Origin: Myxococcota bacterium
GTDB taxonomy: Bacteria; Myxococcota_A; UBA9042; PHBI01; JAWLBL01
DNA length: 64,000 nt
Direction of reading: 5' to 3'
Assembly: GCA_041687695.1 (NCBI GenBank)
Contig: JAWLBL010000015.1
Coordinates: 3,627 to 67,626, forward strand
The position numbers are program-made. Shown piece by piece: positions 3,001 to 9,000 of this stretch; positions within the stretch are counted from its first letter, which is position 1; every line of letters begins with the position of its first letter.

Positions 3001-6000
3001 GAGTAAACGGCCGTCCGGAAGAATCGTCGCTCAGGGGGCGCAGGGATCGGCCACCTCGATGGCGGCCCAGACCAGCGTGCCGATCATGTCGTTGCCGTCT
3101 ACGGAGGCCGTGAAGGCCATCCGGCCCCCGCCGGCGTTGTACAGCGCCCATTGGTCGAGGTGCCTGCTGCCCGGCTCGGGTGGAGCGGTGAACGCCGCTG
3201 CGAAGCGGTAGCTCTCGCCGGGCGCTACGGTCCCGCGCACCGGAACCGTTCGGACGATGCCCATGTGCCCGGAGAACTGGGCCATGCGCCACCGCTCATC
3301 CCAAGTGACGACACCGGCGTTGCGGAACACCCAGGTCTTGATGAACGGCTCGCCTGGCGCCACGCGCGTCCAGTCGGGCAGGTTCTCGGCCAGATACTCG
3401 GCGTAGTCGAGTCCCACGACGTGAATGCGGGTGCGGACCTCGGCCGCGCCTGAGACCGGCACGACGATGCCGGCGTCGTCGACCAGCTCCCAGCGGCCGT
3501 TGAAGCCGCCCACTACCCCAAGGGGGATGGCCGAGGGGGCGCTGACGAGCCAGGTCTCGCCGGGGGCGACGGGGCCGTCGGGGGAGGCCGAGAACTGTCC
3601 GTCGAGTGCCAGGCCACCGAAGGTGTGGCGAAATCGCCAGGCCGTGGTCCAGGTCGTCTGGCCATCGTTGCGCAAGGTGAACGTCTGGTTGAAGGCCGTG
3701 CCCGGCTCGAGCCGGGCGCGCAGGGCCGGCACCATGGCGATCAGCTCGGCCGACCTGGGGGTCTCGACGTCGATCTTGCTCCCCACCTCGATGAGCGGCG
3801 TGGCCTCATCCGTGTCAGCGACGAGCGCCCACTTCTCGACCAGATCGACGCCGAGGTCGGGTGGTTCGAGAACGACCTCGAGCGTGATCCGCTCGCCGGG
3901 CGCCACTGGCGCCATCAGCGGCACGCGATCGGTCGTGGCCAGGTCCCCGGCGGTGCGGATGAGTTGGTAGTCGGTGCTCCATATGCGGGTCCCGGTGTTC
4001 TGTAGGGTCCAGGCCTGCGGGACCAGACTCCCTGGGGTCAGCACCGCGTCCTCTGGGACGAGCTGGTCGAGCAAAGAGGCCTCGTCATGCTCGGGGCACT
4101 CTGGCAAGACGCAGCTCGGAGGTGGCGCCGTCGCGCAAGCGTCCGCCGCGTAGGCGAGGTAGGTGTGCTGGGGCTGGCAGCGGGCCTCGGCAGGGGCATC
4201 GTCCAGAATGGAATGGAAGTGCCCTCCCAGGGGACGGAGCACGCCGAGTGGCGTCCAGTGGCGCCATAACTGACACGAGTTCGCCCAGGGTGTTGACGGT
4301 GGGGCCTGGGCCGAGACGGAGATCGCATGACCAAGGGTGAGCGAGCAGTCGTAGCCCAGCGCCTCTCGCGCGACGAGCTCGTCGTCTTCAAGGTGCACCG
4401 GGATCTCGCCCCGCGCCACCATGGCCGCGGCTCGCTGAGGGTCGACGGGCCGCGTGGGCGGCCCCTGTGCGGGCACCAGGACGTGGTCGTGCTCGAGCGA
4501 GCACTGGCGCAACTCGACCGTGTCGGTCCAGGGAGCGCTGGCGAGGACGAAGGCCTCGCGATCGGCGGTCGGTCGATAGCCGGCGCACGTCGACGGAGGC
4601 TCTTCCGGATGTGGGCCGAGGCAGAAGGCCCCAGTCGTGGGGTCGGTGAAGCGATGGATGTGTGTCCAACAGGCCGCTGGATCGTCGACGACCCCGTTGC
4701 CATCGTCGTCGACGCCATTGCACGGATCTTCGCTGAGGTCTACGCACATGGGACGGTCGGCGGCCCGCTCGTCGAAGACGCAGAGGCCGTTGGCGCAGCG
4801 GGCGCATGGGTCGCAGTCATCGTCATCGAAGCACTCGGCCGACGCGCTGCCTGGTTCCGCGGCGCAACCGACGCACGTCACCGCGGCCGCTAGCAGCGCC
4901 ATACCCCGCCATGGATGGCCCCTGCTCATGCTCAGAACAACCTCGCGAGCACCCCAGCGCCGATGCCGCCGTAGGGACGCCACAGGGGCCCGGCGCCCAT
5001 GCCGACACCCAGCCCACGGCGCGCGCCCACCTTGACCGTGGCCTGCAGCACCCATCGCTCGTCGAGCGCGAGTGCGCCGCCTGTCGCCGCGAAGCCTCCG
5101 AAGGACCAGCCTCCGCGTTGCGCGTCGTCGTCATAGCGCTGCCACAGGGCGCCTCCCTCGACGCCGAGCAGCGTAGTGAGCCGGGCGCGGGCGAGATCCC
5201 AGCCATAGCCTCCAGCGCCGCGGAGCTGGAGGCCTTGGACCTCGTAGCCCCACCCGCCGAAGCGGCGCCGATCGACGCCGTAGGCGACGCCGATGTCCCC
5301 TACCCAGGCGCCCACGTCGACCCGCGTCGAGAGCGCGACGAGGTGCCGAGGAGCGACCTGAACGTCTGTGGCCTCGGAGAGCTCGTAGCCGACGCCCGCG
5401 AACATCGTGACGCCGTCATCCTCCGTGACGGCCACGAAGTCGTCGCCCCTGCCCTTGCTCCACAGCGTTCGGTGGACACGGCCGAAGGGCGAGGGCGGAG
5501 CCGCGGCCGGCTCTTCGTCCAGGTAGACCGTCTGTCCTGGCGCGAACGTGAGCTGCCTTCGACTCTGCTCGCGGCCGCCCTTGGTGACGACCAACTCGGA
5601 CCGGCCGGGGAAGACACGCACCACCTCGCTGGTGCCGCGGGCTTTGTCGAACGTGATGACCGGCTGGCCATCGTAGTGGAGCGCGAACTGCCCCTCGGTC
5701 GCCTGACCCAGCATGAGGCTGGCGGAAGCCGGCCGAGTGAAGCTGAGGTAGACGGGGCCGTCGGCCTCGAAGTGGTTCACGATCCTGGGGTGCTGAGAGC
5801 GGCCCCGGCCGGCCGTGTAGCGGACCGTGCGCTCGCGCGCGTAGAGCCAGATGCTGTCGACGGTGATGCCCAGGCCGCGCGACGGCGCCTTCTCGAGCGC
5901 CTCGATGAAGAAGTGCGTGAAGACGCCCCCGAGCTGCGGGTCTTCGTAGCTGTCCTCGCCGGCGCCCGAGGACAGGAACCACACGCTGCCTTTGGCGTGC

Positions 6001-9000
6001 AGGATCTCCTTGGGCATCTCGGAGAAGAGGTTGACGCCGGGTGTCGCCTTGAGCCCCTTGGCCAGCAGCCGGCGCGGATCGAGCGTCCCGCTGTGGCAGG
6101 CGTCGACCATGCCGACGGACAGGTCGGCCTGCATTTGCCTGAAGACTCCGGCCAGCCCGTTGGCCGACAACCGCCCGTCGGCGAGCAGCAAGCCATCGGG
6201 CCGGCCGTGGCCGGTGAAGAAGAAGGCGAAGAGCACCTGCGCGTTGGGGACCCGGGCGCGGTCGTGGGCGATCTGGCTCGCGAGCGCGTCGGCGGCACGC
6301 GACAGCTCGGCCCTGGTGGCGTCGAGGAGCAGGACCGTCCGCGTGCTGGAAGGGTGGAAGTTGCTGCGCGAGACGAGCACCTCCCGGAGCCGGGCGGCCT
6401 CGGTCTGCGCGTGCAGGAGGGGAGGGAGCGCGTCCGCGTCGGAATCGACCGCGGTGTTGTTGCCCACGATGAGCGCGTAACGCAGCAGCGCCGCATGCAC
6501 CGGGGCGGTGACGGCGAGCACCGAACCGACGACGGCGGCAAGCGCCAGGATTCGCCAGAGCCGATCCAAGCGGGCCGGGGCGAGCGCGGGTTCAGCGTCG
6601 CAGGGGGAAGATGGACACCGACCGCGCCCCCTCGATGGTCGGAGTCGATAGCGAACATTCGGAATCACTGGGCCTCTCCGCGGACCGAAGCAGGTCCTCG
6701 ACGAGTCTGGCCTGTATCGCCGCATCTGAAAAGACCGCCACGATCCATTCGCAGCGCTGGCCGTCACCGACGATCGCGCCGGAAGGGAGTGGGACCTGAT
6801 GGCCCGGCTCGATGGGGCCGCTGGCGGCGCCTTCGGCCGGGTGAAGGACGGCCATCGTCCCCTCGGCGTCGAGCCCGACCACGAGGAGATGGCCTGGCCG
6901 GGTCGCGTGATAGAACAGGCCGAGCCGATCGCCCGTCTCCACGCGATCGTGAGGCGACGCCGCGAATCGCAGGCCGTCCCGGGCGATCGCGACCTCGAGC
7001 CGTTCGGTTTCCTGCGCCGCTTCACCGCCGGCGCTGGCCGCCGTCCCGCCTTTGGGCAGCAGCGCGGCCCCAGGCTCGCCTTCCCCAAGCCGCGGCCCCG
7101 ACTGGGTGCGGTCGACGATCAAGGATGTCGCCCCAATCAGCATCAGCGCCGCCGCGATCGCCAGCCAGCGGGTGAGGGCCGCGTCGCGGCGTCGCGGCCG
7201 CGGCCGTAGAGGGACGAGCCGGGCCGAGCTTGAGGCGGCACCGTCAGTCGCGGGAGCTTGGGGTTCACCGTCAGCCAACTCGACGGCGATCTCGTAGGCC
7301 AGACGGCAAGCTTCACACGCCATCCGATGCTCGGCGGCCCGGCGCCGCGTCTCGTCGTCGAGGGTGGCCCCCGTGGGGTCACCGAGCAGCTCGGAGAGTC
7401 GGCCGAGCTCCAAGCAAGTCTCCAGCGCCTGCTCGTCGAAGTGCTGTTTCAGCAAGGGCCCGAGCGGCGGCTCGAGCCTGCGGAGATCACGGGTCATGGG
7501 GCACCTTCTTCCGGCGCGTCTTCTCGCCGGGCGGGACGCCGAGCCAGGCCCGGAGCCGGTTCATCAGCTTGTCGTGGCGCTGCCCGACGTTCTGCTTGGA
7601 ACATCCGAGCGCCCGCGCGACGTCGGCCTTCTTCAGGCCTTCCCAGTACACGAGCCGCAGGATCTCGCGCTCTTCATCGGTCAACTCTTCGAGGCCCTGG
7701 CTCAATTGTTCCAGCATCTGTCTCTGCAACGCTACGGCCTCGGGGTTCCAGCGCTCGGGTGGGGGGCGCTGCGTGTACGGCGACGACTCGACCACCTCGG
7801 GGGAGAGCGAGTTGTGGCGATGCTGCCGAGCCGCGAACTTGCTGGCGCGGGTGAGCGCCATGGAATGAAGGTAGCCGGGAAAGGTCTTCATCACGCTGTC
7901 GCGGTGCACGTACTTGCCGAGAAACAGCAGCGAGACCTCGGAGGCGACCTCGTCGGCCGTGCCCTCGCAGTGGATGCTCCAGCGCCGCAGCATGCGCCCA
8001 CACAGCTCGCGGACCTTGGGATGGTGCTCGACCTGATAGCGCTCCCAGGCCTCAGGCCGCCCCTGCCTCAACGCGACCAGAAACTGCCGCCTGTCCTCGA
8101 CTTCGTCGTGCATGGGCCCCGCTCTGCGTGTCGCCGTCCGTGACCCACGGGGGTCGCTGCCCTCACGAGAGACTCATCCTCGTGGGCCTCGAAAGTAAAC
8201 TCATCCGTGAACGGTAGGACGTGAGCGCCGGCGACTCCTCGACCGTGAACGGCCCGCGCTGTCTCACATGGGGGACGCACCAGGTCCTGGTGGAGTACGG
8301 CGCGGAACGTACGTCGTCACCTTCCGGGGGCTCGCAAGAAGTGCAGATGGCCGACGCGGGACAATCGCGACCGACGACGAGATGCCCGCGCACCATAGGC
8401 GGCCGATGATGGAGCGGGCCGACCGTATCAGCTCTGGTGCCGAAGTCCAGAACCTCTCTGGGAATGGACGTCCAGAGTCCTCGAGCACCGAGGGGCCCCG
8501 GCACCGAGGACGCCCGTCCAGGCCACCGTGTCCGCAGGGACGTTGTCTCGCACAGCCCGTCGGCTGCGCGTGATGGTCGCAGGAGGGGGGTGACTGGGCG
8601 CGTGTAGGGCGTGCGTCGCGCGACGCAAGAGATTGACTCGCCTGAGGCGACACCGTACAACAGCCGACATCGTGGTGATTTGGTCCGCTTGCCGCCACGT
8701 TAAACAAGGAGCTAAAGAGATGGGTGAGATGTCGGTGCATCCCGAGCTGAGGGATGAGGCGTTGGTGCGTCGCGAGGTGGCGCGCGGCTTGGGTGAGCTG
8801 CTGGCGCGGTGGGGCGGCTCGGACGAGGCGCTGGCGCGGCGGTTGGGCTTCGAGGACGTGCCGCGCGGGGCGTTCCTGGTCGGTGCGTGGTCGCGGGGCG
8901 ACGAGGACCCGGACGAGGCGCAGGTCGCGCGGTTGTGCGACGCGGTGGGGGCCGAGGCGGCGCCCTGGGCGGAGGTGGTCCGGCGGCGACGGGCGGCGCG

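Follow-up and report, generated by a model that had tools for sequence, protein, structure and literature searches.

The window analysed here, a 64,000-nt stretch of a contig from a Myxococcota bacterium, contains a three-gene operon on the minus strand (operon 1, 4932-8113) encoding a sigma factor, an anti-sigma-like protein and a caspase-family protease. The ECF-type sigma factor (7487..8113, minus strand, 208 aa) was recognised by Sigma70_r4 (E 6.5e-10), Sigma70_r4_2 (E 4.8e-9) and TIGR02937 sigma70-ECF (59.9 bits, cut-off 42.9). The operon is tightly packed, with the ATG of the single-pass anti-sigma-like protein (6592..7497, minus strand, 301 aa) lying 11 nt inside the 3' end of the sigma gene; this protein was characterized by a structure model and a weak DUF4384 match (21.8 bits, cut-off 27). 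An exported metacaspase-like protease (4932..6569, minus strand; Peptidase_C14 48 bits, cut-off 21.4) is the product of the third gene; a TTG start gives it a full signal peptide and a length of 545 aa. Only 2 nt past the caspase stop begins a fourth gene (3031..4929, minus strand) whose lipoprotein-like product is rich in Cys and contains three N_BRCA1_IG (Nbr1-type Ig) domains (E 1.4e-33, three stretches); the ortholog of this gene in genome G011 lies immediately upstream of the caspase ortholog. A downstream gene for a CHAP-domain lipoprotein-like protein (313..2094, minus strand; CHAP E 1.1e-9) possibly belongs to the same unit, and its ortholog in genome G015 (phmmer E 1.3e-92) likewise lies immediately upstream of the caspase ortholog.

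The genome-wide survey's note had described four operons joining a sigma factor, an H-x3-C-x2-C protein and a caspase-fold protease, and we recovered all four with all eight of the motifs quoted. Besides operon 1, these were operon 2 (contig coordinates C15:76234-79239), operon 3 (C17:87311-90475) and operon 4 (C23:110964-113747). From operon 1 to operon 4, the middle proteins measured 301, 298, 227 and 243 aa, matching the 227-301 aa given before, and carried HRMACEACR, HLAACDPCR, HVEGCTRCH and HAADCERCR, while the proteases carried FTGHG/DACHS, YSGHG/DACNA, YAGHG/NACRS and FSGHG/DACRT. C14 scores in operons 2 and 4 were 28.2 and 45.2 bits, and the operon 3 protease was assigned to CHAT (107.7 bits, cut-off 24). 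A contractile-injection-system locus does abut operon 3, as the note had reported, with Pvc16_N (Pfam, E 9e-19), sheath and gp19 tube proteins as neighbours, and Pfam searches found no cas genes among the immediate neighbours of the C14 operons. Because such operons hold three of the genome's five C14 genes, Sigma70_r4_2 has about 34 matches in 8 Mb, and all three members of the anti-sigma family in the genome adjoin a caspase gene, the association exceeds what chance would produce.

Among 69 related loci with 1700 nt or more of upstream sequence, 61 kept sigma, anti-sigma and caspase in that order on one strand. In further genomes of the phylum, anti-sigma and caspase genes were adjacent in 25/25 loci, with the sigma gene also visible in 23 and the other two loci ending too early. 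Because resemblance to the protease was the basis on which these loci were picked, the rates of synteny hold for this protease subfamily only. Of 401 genomes sampled from the phylum, 195 carried the protease family, and 23 of the 27 anti-sigma family matches in five genomes of the order adjoined a caspase gene. These results support the protease and the sigma/anti-sigma pair being one conserved module, although the closest ortholog pair in G011 is convergent and not co-transcribed. This last arrangement, in which the G011 protease ortholog sits within a run of Nbr1-Ig genes, would suit a protease that is a mere output of the sigma factor, an envelope effector whose targets would be other proteins (the neighbouring Nbr1-Ig and CHAP lipoproteins, for example), with some other periplasmic protease cutting the anti-sigma. 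Co-transcription alone already predicts such co-regulation, and in G015 the CHAP ortholog accompanies the protease; we nevertheless regard this reading as unlikely in view of the motif evidence given below.

The structure model of the operon 1 protease (pLDDT 89.7) comprised a signal peptide, a caspase domain, an Ig-like domain and an OmpA-like beta-barrel. Both catalytic motifs were retained, FTGH121G (6204..6218, minus strand) and D156-A-C158-HS (6090..6104, minus strand), with G120, H121, D156 and C158 invariant in 80/80 aligned relatives. Foldseek matched the model to the OmpA barrel 9fzc (E 5.6e-8) and MALT1 caspase-Ig3 (E 8.6e-8), and further to caspase-7, caspase-9 and a metacaspase. 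In sequence-profile searches of the PDB, metacaspases scored best, DAC aligning to the metacaspase DSC, and metacaspases are Arg/Lys-specific, cutting after these residues (PMC3501461). The C-terminal barrel (residues 364-545; 4935..5480, minus strand), modelled with long antiparallel strands, matched OmpA, OmpX and Ail at target TM-scores of 0.62-0.69 (Foldseek), and in operons 1 and 4 such a barrel would hang the protease beneath the outer membrane. The operon 2 protease sits in the inner membrane through a pair of C-terminal helices. Signal peptides had been proposed for all three C14 enzymes; hydropathy found N-terminal hydrophobic windows in those of operons 1 and 4, whereas the operon 2 N-terminus passed no window and its signal peptide was read by eye.

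This placement bears on the reading of a 2012 survey, in which the protease would act as an executioner in cell death or defence, with a dedicated sigma factor doing no more than control its expression (PMC3501461). That survey ties the sigma-70/metacaspase operons of Myxococcus xanthus to developmental cell death, a defence island is under DdvA/DdvS control (PMC11506125), and a contractile injection system adjoins operon 3. An exported, outer-membrane-anchored enzyme is ill placed to kill from within, however, no toxin or nuclease partner was conserved in the loci, and PADLOC returned no system-level match, giving just a weak generic caspase model for the operon 4 caspase and an HTH match for the sigma factor. 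We therefore consider an executioner role very unlikely.

The operon 1 anti-sigma model, built on 108 sequences, showed helices over residues 12-76, a membrane helix at 104-129 (7111..7188, minus strand), also detected by hydropathy, a linker at 130-159 predicted to be disordered (pLDDT < 50), and a periplasmic Ig-like beta-sandwich of DUF4384 type at 166-300 (6598..7002, minus strand; pLDDT about 90). The zinc anti-sigma signature HRMACEAC spans residues 57-64 (7306..7329, minus strand), and H-x3-C-x2-C was found in 114 of 149 representatives of the family. A Foldseek cut-off of E <= 0.001 left the sandwich without any match among solved structures, and the weaker matches were mostly to Ig-like beta-sandwich domains. 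Of the three membrane helices claimed for the four middle proteins, those of operons 1 and 4 were clear, and operon 2 showed a weaker hydrophobic stretch under the threshold used. The operon 3 protein is probably soluble, because its candidate segment is amphipathic in relatives.

Since Ig-like domains occur in both partners, signalling might proceed by binding and not by cutting: the outer-membrane-tethered protease or its Ig-like domain would dock on the anti-sigma Ig-like domain, with the motif described below as pseudo-substrate or docking peptide, or the anti-sigma domain would keep the protease inactive. Docking has parallels in the outer-membrane transducer that contacts FecR and in RseB, which contacts RseA, and the protease is predicted to be membrane-fixed by its barrel or helix pair. 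Fusions of DUF4384 to protease domains are, moreover, described as frequent (bioRxiv 10.1101/2022.08.17.504292), and the operon 3 protease itself bears this domain. Considering that the His-Cys dyad is invariant in 80/80 relatives, which argues for catalysis, and that the motif lies in the disordered linker and not in a folded domain, we judge pure binding distinctly improbable.

Evidence for cleavage beyond gene order came from an R-x-[K/R]-G motif that is conserved, in stretches modelled as disordered, in both partners. In the operon 1 anti-sigma it reads LLPK149-G150-G (7045..7062, minus strand), a candidate site-1 cleavage site 20 residues past the membrane helix, and G150 is one of just two invariant columns across 15 anti-sigmas. 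[KR]G was present in 145/149 representatives and in 99 of 108 operon partners, with Arg at P3 in 134/149 representatives at a median Lys content of 1.6%. R-x-[KR]-G occurred within 45 residues past the helix in 60 of 81 anti-sigmas against 3.3 expected from shuffles, at a median distance of 17.5 residues. The protease carries its own version, LLAK171-G172-L (6051..6068, minus strand), a candidate self-processing site or pseudo-substrate in the loop past the catalytic Cys (residues 162-179, pLDDT < 50). K171 was at least 90% conserved and G172 invariant, and all 108 relatives had [KR]G 9-13 residues beyond the Cys. This shared sequence agrees with the preference for Arg/Lys that a metacaspase-like enzyme would be expected to have.

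The motif variants also appeared to match within pairs, with LLPKG (anti-sigma) and LLAKG (protease) in operon 1 and QPRG and GTRG in operon 2. Where the protease P1 was Arg, the anti-sigma P1 was Arg in 6/6 pairs versus 17/99 otherwise, and where the protease P3 was not Arg, neither was the anti-sigma P3 in 7/9 versus 10/99 otherwise; four of the anti-sigma motif rows in this comparison had been re-anchored by hand. The Fisher values (6e-5 and 2e-5), which ignore kinship, overstate the case because few lineages contribute: a tree gave just 3-5 independent pairs, none in the wrong direction, and with kinship controlled the co-variation was not significant (sign tests, median p 0.25-1). Three of four anti-sigma family members without an adjacent caspase also lacked the canonical motif, while one relative, L127, retains TRIKG although no caspase gene lies within about 3 kb of it. 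L127 is what a protease acting only as output would predict, but that explanation leaves unaccounted for the nearly invariant motif common to inhibitor and protease, the within-pair matching of its variants, and the scarcity of the motif in caspase-less relatives. A motif resembling a cut site in both partners suggests that the protease may be what turns on the sigma factor.

In E. coli, the sigma-E/RseA/DegS/RseP pathway uses a single-pass anti-sigma that is first cut at site 1, a few tens of residues beyond the membrane, and then at site 2 by an M50 protease. The C14 operons share the single-pass anti-sigma and the position of the candidate site-1 cut, and the genome encodes an RseP-like M50 site-2 protease (214 bits); in contrast to DegS, an unlinked inner-membrane serine protease, the site-1 enzyme here would be an operon-encoded, outer-membrane-tethered cysteine protease of caspase fold. 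The same type of regulated intramembrane proteolysis is mentioned for E. coli sigma-E in PMC11506125. We give roughly even chances to the C14 operons being self-contained envelope signalling modules in which the protease activates the sigma factor through anti-sigma cleavage, as the note had proposed; the conserved module and shared motif favour its proposal, while the co-variation adds no significant support once kinship is considered. The sigma factor would be held at the inner membrane by an anti-sigma that binds it through a zinc-type domain in the cytoplasm, crosses the membrane with one helix and continues through a disordered linker into an Ig-like domain in the periplasm. An envelope signal would activate the protease, probably through cutting of its own R-x-[K/R]-G loop past the catalytic Cys; the protease would then cleave the anti-sigma behind K149 of its copy of this motif, an RseP-type site-2 protease would remove the short stub, and the released sigma factor would transcribe its regulon. 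The analysis established the domain architecture, the conserved three-gene order, motif conservation, predicted disorder, a retained catalytic dyad and a site-2 protease gene in the genome; we infer each cleavage, the signal and the regulon.

Operon 3 is a different, probably cytoplasmic design. Its CHAT domain lacks a signal peptide and lies N-terminal to a membrane helix, which ties it to a probably periplasmic DUF4384-like domain, and the partner looks soluble, so the note's idea that an exported protease meets the external part of the anti-sigma does not fit here. Only this operon resembles Craspase (Cas7-11/Csx29 TPR-CHAT/Csx30/RpoE) in layout. In Craspase, too, a caspase-family protease cuts the linker of a sigma-binding protein and DUF4384 is the C-terminal domain of some Csx30, but that system is cytoplasmic, RNA-guided and CRISPR-linked (bioRxiv 10.1101/2022.08.17.504292), whereas the C14 operons are periplasmic. 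That some of these craspase substrates end in DUF4384 counts for the proposed cleavage. Operon 3 also recalls ECF54 of Actinobacteria, where the sigma gene is followed at +1 by a carboxypeptidase-regulatory-like protein and then CHAT (PMC7826278 supplement): its middle protein has a weak CarboxypepD_reg match (21.3 bits, cut-off 32.3) next to the CHAT gene. ECF54 belongs to another phylum, with subtilase and TPR proteins in its contexts and no recognised anti-sigma. Passages of the same supplement mention CHAT as a neighbour of ECF54 and DUF4384 as a domain of ECF25 anti-sigmas, and do not name C14.

The note had held the idea to be known only from CRISPR type III systems, a claim of novelty that was overstated because sigma-70/metacaspase operons were printed in 2012 (PMC3501461) and DdvA was published in 2024 (PMC11506125). 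Asplund-Samuelsson et al. reported such operons for four of five M. xanthus metacaspases and in Anaeromyxobacter, Haliangium, Sorangium, Ralstonia and Fibrobacter, the same gene association with several paralogous copies per myxobacterial genome; in the parts consulted it stands as association only, read as cell death, with no motif, topology or mechanism, and "anti-sigma" is absent from the text (PMC3501461). DdvS/DdvA of M. xanthus likewise pairs an ECF sigma factor with a single-pass zinc-type anti-sigma, a periplasmic caspase-family protease domain and a flexible linker between helix and periplasmic domain, where a site-1-like self-cleavage is proposed before RseP (PMC11506125). There, the anti-sigma is fused to TPR-CHAT, which would cut in trans, one subunit of a dimer acting on the other, whereas here a separate C14 metacaspase-like protein bears an outer-membrane barrel of its own, and the periplasmic domain of the anti-sigma is a small Ig-like DUF4384-type fold. 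DdvA His and Cys dyad mutants had no phenotype under the conditions tested, which counts against the proposed cleavage (PMC11506125). DdvA-like proteins are described only from Myxococcota and one Comamonas (PMC11506125), versus 15,552 representative clusters in the anti-sigma family here. The module would thus represent regulated proteolysis of an anti-sigma, a known kind of process, in which, if the proposal is true, an operon-encoded metacaspase-like protease would switch its sigma factor on.

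The window, which has a G+C content of about 70%, comes from a source genome of 8 Mb in 63 contigs. Operon 1 (4932-8113, minus strand) comprises three tightly packed genes encoding a sigma factor of 208 aa (7487-8113, minus; Sigma70_r4 E 6.5e-10; TIGR02937 59.9 bits, cut-off 42.9), an anti-sigma-like protein of 301 aa (a1; 6592-7497, minus) carrying HRMACEAC at residues 57-64, and a protease of the C14 family (c1; minus; Peptidase_C14, PF00656, 48.0 bits against 21.4). From its ATG, a1 overlaps the sigma gene by 11 nt, c1 begins at a TTG (6569) 23 nt past the anti-sigma stop, and a fourth gene begins 2 nt beyond the stop of c1. 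We chose this TTG because it yields a complete signal peptide and matches the N-termini of the orthologs; in the public annotation the protein starts 16 residues later and has 529 aa. Judging from gene order and translational coupling, the middle protein would bind and inhibit its cognate sigma factor.

Two further lipoprotein-like genes follow this four-gene unit on the same (minus) strand, at 313-2094 and 2218-2976. The product of 313-2094 is a 593-aa protein with a CHAP (peptidoglycan amidase/peptidase) domain, and in another genome, G015, its ortholog immediately precedes the protease ortholog. The stretch 8500-9900, which separates the operon from the next clear gene, has an unusually high G+C content (0.75-0.79) and a strong G-over-C skew of +0.27 to +0.35; an ORF within it (8633-9634, plus) had no Pfam match. 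At 9914-10513 (plus) lies the gene of a secreted chalcone-isomerase-like protein (Chalcone_3 E 3.6e-43), for which no link to the operon was seen.

The genome-wide survey's note had described four operons of this kind, and its observation was confirmed: operons 2, 3 and 4 were found at the contig positions it claimed (C15:76234-79239, C17:87311-90475 and C23:110964-113747), with all quoted motifs, and operon 3 does abut a contractile-injection-system locus (Pvc16_N E 9e-19, with sheath and gp19 tube proteins). The four sigma factors scored 59.9, 44.4, 65.4 and 65.3 bits with TIGR02937 (cut-off 42.9), which places them in the ECF (group 4) class, and their Pfam region 2 and region 4 matches were uneven. 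H-x3-C-x2-C was present in all four middle proteins and, together with the N-terminal helices (12-76) of the a1 structure model, agrees with a ZAS-type domain; Pfam zf-HC2 matched only the middle protein of operon 2, at 20.8 bits, under its cut-off of 22.2. The proteases of operons 1, 2 and 4 (c1, c2 and c4) matched Peptidase C14 (PF00656) at 48.0, 28.2 and 45.2 bits (cut-off 21.4), and that of operon 3 (c3) matched CHAT (PF12770) at 107.7 bits (cut-off 24), with both YAGHG and NACRS in place. Since three of the only five C14 matches in the genome fall inside these operons, against six CHAT matches (four above the Pfam cut-off) and about 34 Sigma70_r4_2 matches genome-wide, the arrangement is no chance neighbourhood. 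No sigma-like ORF was seen by eye beside the other two C14 genes.

Searches upstream of the sigma genes established no shared promoter. The ECF promoter pattern (GAAC, 14-19 bases, CGT) occurred in only 3 of 64 such regions, and k-mer enrichment detected codons of a Cys-rich gene farther upstream instead. One T-rich word of 13 bases recurs without change just upstream of the sigma genes of operon 2 (L001 at about 4141, equal to C15:76140) and operon 3 (L002 at about 7508, equal to C17:90507), these being its only two copies in the 8-Mb genome; the operon 3 copy fits the promoter shape GGAAC, 16 bases, CGTCT. The two operons may have a promoter or operator element in common here. Divergent from operon 2 and outside the window, we also noticed a bacterial alpha-2-macroglobulin gene (MG2, A2M and TED domains; L001:3-4520, minus, on C15 of the source genome), that is, a periplasmic protease trap adjoining a periplasmic protease operon.

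We then evaluated the conservation of the module. A protease search found the family in 10 of 18 genomes of the order. Pfam analysis of 48 flanking ORFs at 19 loci revealed a same-strand upstream sigma-70 match at nine loci and a DUF4384-like ORF interrupted by a contig end at two, most of the remaining loci being truncated by a contig end or by the limit of the 1.5-kb flank. At the best full-length protease ortholog, in genome G011, the sigma/anti-sigma pair converges on the protease gene from the opposite side, and a run of Nbr1-type Ig genes precedes the protease on its own strand (L104:10210-18000, on contig C14 of G011). A scan of the species-level genome collection with a narrow alignment as query returned 531 stretches encoding protease relatives, of which the best 80 were kept and searched with profiles from our own alignments. 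Among the 69 of these loci with at least 1700 nt upstream, 61 had the order sigma, anti-sigma, protease on one strand and one more did so by eye; the pair was divergent in one locus and nothing was found in six. In an even sample of the phylum, the protease family occurred in 195 of 401 genomes and 143 of 255 genera, and the anti-sigma gene adjoined the protease in 25 of 25 new loci, with a sigma factor also visible in 23 and the other two loci ending early. All these loci were picked through the protease, so the rates describe this protease subfamily and not C14 genes at large.

The anti-sigma family is extensive. An exhaustive search of 1.84 billion cluster representatives with a profile built from 15 anti-sigma sequences gave 15,552 matches at E <= 0.001, 8,260 at <= 1e-10 and 1,911 at <= 1e-30, and so reached a family of which a word-based homolog search had returned only the query itself. 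Its members bear public names such as "hypothetical" or "putative zinc-finger". Many loci of the main protease group encode, directly upstream of sigma, a small lipoprotein-like product that is acidic, rich in Cys and built of repeated Cys-spaced helices (L009:1-678; upstream regions in L024, L034, L035, L046, L048, L050 and L066); no such gene was seen upstream of the sigma factor in the window.

Structure models were built for both partners of operon 1. In the a1 model (108 sequences, mean pLDDT 75.5), residues 12-76 form N-terminal helices and residues 104-129 the membrane helix; pLDDT is below 50 across 130-159, and a confidently modelled beta-sandwich occupies 166-300. No solved structure matched the sandwich in Foldseek at E <= 0.001, and the weak matches were mostly Ig-like beta-sandwich domains. 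DUF4384 (PF14326) was the sole Pfam match of a1, at 21.8 bits under a gathering cut-off of 27, and two relatives scored 20.3 and 22.9 bits, likewise below threshold; on these scores the sandwich appears DUF4384-type, resembling that family without being a member of it. The c1 model (80 sequences, pLDDT 89.7, pTM 0.81) shows a signal helix, a caspase domain (28-267) interrupted directly past Cys158 by a low-confidence loop (162-179), a small beta-sandwich (274-351) and a long-stranded barrel (364-543). The barrel matched OmpA, OmpX and Ail in Foldseek at E 5.6e-8 to 3e-6, the best being OmpA 9fzc (E 5.6e-8, target TM-score 0.69), and the C-terminal residue is Phe; the model thus predicts an OmpA-like, 8-stranded outer-membrane barrel. 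The operon 4 protease aligns with c1 over a length that includes the barrel region, and that of operon 2 ends in two hydrophobic helices in place of the barrel.

For the enzyme part of c1, Foldseek returned MALT1 caspase-Ig3, caspases 7, 9 and 3, and yeast metacaspase, and the closest solved relatives by sequence profile were metacaspases (E 1.9e-7, for AtMC4, to 1e-3). The catalytic dyad H121 and C158 was invariant in 80 of 80 aligned relatives. The D-A-C of the family aligned with the D-S-C of metacaspases in the sequence-profile comparison with the PDB. Metacaspase-type enzymes cleave after basic residues and have an acidic S1 pocket, in which the Asp two residues before the catalytic Cys would have a role. 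A relative of animal caspases might act as an executioner in death or defence; the PADLOC defence models assigned no system here, and we regard such a role as highly improbable.

Both partners carry a conserved R-x-[K/R]-G motif. In the protease, Gly172 was invariant and Lys171 conserved to 90% or more, both in an alignment of 22 sequences and in one of 80; the family consensus is DACRSG-x-L-T-R-V-K-G. The motif lies at roughly the position at which animal caspases are processed in their inter-subunit linker. Across 15 anti-sigma proteins only two columns were invariant, namely Gly150, which belongs to a [K/R]-G pair shortly past the membrane helix, and Asp190, which belongs to a GD motif of the sandwich. 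Among the 149 best anti-sigma representatives, whose median Lys content is 1.6%, [KR]G was found at the Gly150 column in 145 and Arg at P3 in 134, and H-x3-C-x2-C was kept by only 114. R-x-[KR]-G occurred within 45 residues past the helix in 60 of 81 proteins, against 3.3 expected when each protein's own periplasmic part was shuffled, with P1 8-30 residues (median 17.5) from the helix end. In operon pairs with ungapped columns, [KR]G was present in 99 of 108 anti-sigma proteins and 108 of 108 proteases.

Both motifs sit in low-confidence stretches of the a1 and c1 models, so that they appear conserved yet unstructured, as expected of a linear recognition or cleavage site, and K149-G150 of a1 is a candidate site-1 bond in its extracytoplasmic part. 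Recognition of such a site could also serve signalling by binding without cutting. Signalling by binding appears to us rather improbable. The basic P1 fits a metacaspase-like enzyme; a 2012 survey describes metacaspases as cutting at Arg or Lys (PMC3501461). Cleavage of the anti-sigma protein by the neighbouring protease is the reading we carry forward.

Within the source genome, the motif variants were matched inside each pair: LLPKG in the anti-sigma protein and LLAKG in the protease of operon 1, QPRG and GTRG in operon 2, and RLKG and RPKG in operon 4. Across the 108 pairs, at P1 a protease Arg went with an anti-sigma Arg in 6 of 6 cases, versus 17 of 99 where the protease has Lys (Fisher 6e-5), and at P3 a protease non-Arg went with an anti-sigma non-Arg in 7 of 9 cases, versus 10 of 99 otherwise (Fisher 2e-5), values that ignore kinship. 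A kinship control on a tree of the protease domain minus the loop offered only 3-5 independent contrasts and was underpowered; none ran in the wrong direction, and the sign tests had median p values of 0.25-1. Given the few contrasts, the non-significant sign tests and four anti-sigma rows that were re-anchored manually, we take the co-variation as suggestive only.

The anti-sigma profile matched only the three operon proteins in the source genome and 27 proteins in five genomes of the order, 23 of which adjoin a caspase gene (21 according to PF00656 or the protease search, one by Pfam at E 9.6e-7, and one fragmented over several frames). At L129:2600-5400 (C23 of genome G012), the protease and the anti-sigma end are spread across several reading frames, as in a decaying copy or an assembly error. 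Two of the four caspase-less relatives, at orthologous loci (L128:3055-4059 and L130:3667-5076), have no sigma factor, no caspase and no [KR]G. Beside them lie genes for a Ser/Thr kinase, an M17 aminopeptidase and a protein with a weak DUF3280 match below threshold, so that the membrane protein fold seems to be put to another signalling use there. The third has a degenerate H-V-K-S in place of the motif, and the fourth retains T-R-I-K-G, the roughly 3 kb around it holding no caspase gene. In this small sample, with one exception, the motif is therefore not intrinsic to the fold and mostly travels with the protease.

The survey's note had proposed that the caspase removes the anti-sigma factor. 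The conserved module and the motif common to both partners partly support this idea, to which the co-variation adds only a suggestion. Regulated proteolysis by an operon-encoded, caspase-fold site-1 protease is the best-supported reading, and we hold it with moderate confidence. The protease would be activated, probably by a cut in its own loop, and would then cut the anti-sigma protein after K149; the stub of about 20 residues would be cleared by an RseP-type protease, and the sigma factor would be released. A gene for such a site-2 (M50, RseP-type) protease is present in the genome (PF02163 214 bits, C9:29971-31548). Membership in the sigma operon would equally suit a protease that is an output of the sigma factor only, which the shared motif leads us to consider unlikely. 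Under the proteolytic reading, the accompanying genes for Nbr1-type Ig and CHAP-domain lipoproteins, orthologs of which flank the protease in G011 and G015, are candidates for the signal or the regulon. More tentatively, a widespread trans-envelope system is possible, in which an outer-membrane-tethered metacaspase is devoted to the site-1 cut of its own anti-sigma factor and reads a short R-x-[K/R]-G code that it carries itself, and in which the paralog codes (LLxKG in operon 1, xxRG in operon 2 and RxKG in operon 4) insulate the switches within one cell.

Operon 3 has a different layout. Its CHAT protease has no signal peptide, and the CHAT domain is followed by a membrane helix (415-433) and a DUF4384-like region. 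CHAT relatives occurred in 29 of 301 sampled genomes; the eight best loci all had an upstream same-strand sigma match, and in six of them an ORF with H-x3-C-x2-C separates the sigma and CHAT genes. The segment in the middle proteins is amphipathic rather than membrane-type. A 'TRG' past the membrane helix of c3 was rejected as an equivalent of R-x-[K/R]-G because orthologs have no conserved [KR]G there. With a probably cytoplasmic CHAT domain and a middle protein that would be a soluble sigma-binding substrate, operon 3 is closer to the logic of craspase, to which it adds a periplasmic sensor domain.

The association of sigma-70 and metacaspase genes is already published. According to the 2012 survey (PMC3501461), which never uses the term anti-sigma, sigma-70 factors share operons with four of the five metacaspases of M. 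xanthus, and the same operon structure occurs in Anaeromyxobacter, Haliangium, Sorangium, Ralstonia and Fibrobacter. Nor is the protease/anti-sigma concept confined to CRISPR type III systems, as the survey's note had it: for the fused protein DdvA, PMC11506125 proposes a caspase-family domain as the site-1 protease of a transmembrane zinc anti-sigma factor, cleavage itself being a proposal. DdvA joins a periplasmic TPR-CHAT to its anti-sigma factor, whereas the anti-sigma proteins here are of 227-301 aa, with a small beta-sandwich and neither CHAT nor TPR. Craspase (type III-E) has Cas7-11 and a CRISPR array beside the protease, whereas neither was found by Pfam among the operon neighbours here; some craspase substrates end in DUF4384, as bioRxiv 10.1101/2022.08.17.504292 describes. 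In the part of the ECF classification supplement covered, DUF4384 is frequent in ECF25 anti-sigma factors and ECF54 lies near CHAT, with no mention of C14. In our literature search, no paper was found that puts forward or tests the action of a separate C14 protease on its neighbouring anti-sigma factor; subscription journals and supplements may hold more. Besides the DdvA paper, the search returned a preprint on a type III-B CRISPR protease cascade.

What the window adds is the occurrence of three C14 paralogs and one CHAT operon in one genome, motif variants matched inside each pair, and a divergent LLxKG subfamily with extra lipoprotein partners. The substrates and purpose of bacterial caspase homologs are an old open question, and because a candidate substrate, a candidate bond (K149-G150) and a read-out in the form of a dedicated sigma activity are encoded side by side, three genes suffice for a test of the idea. 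The family is a large one, with 15,552 representative anti-sigma clusters and the protease in nearly half of the sampled genomes of the phylum (195/401). If the idea is true, the anti-sigma protein would be the first defined physiological substrate of bacterial caspase homologs, and caspase-type control of sigma factors would predate, and extend beyond, CRISPR systems. It would also define a common, unannotated signalling route and add a new protease class to regulated anti-sigma proteolysis.
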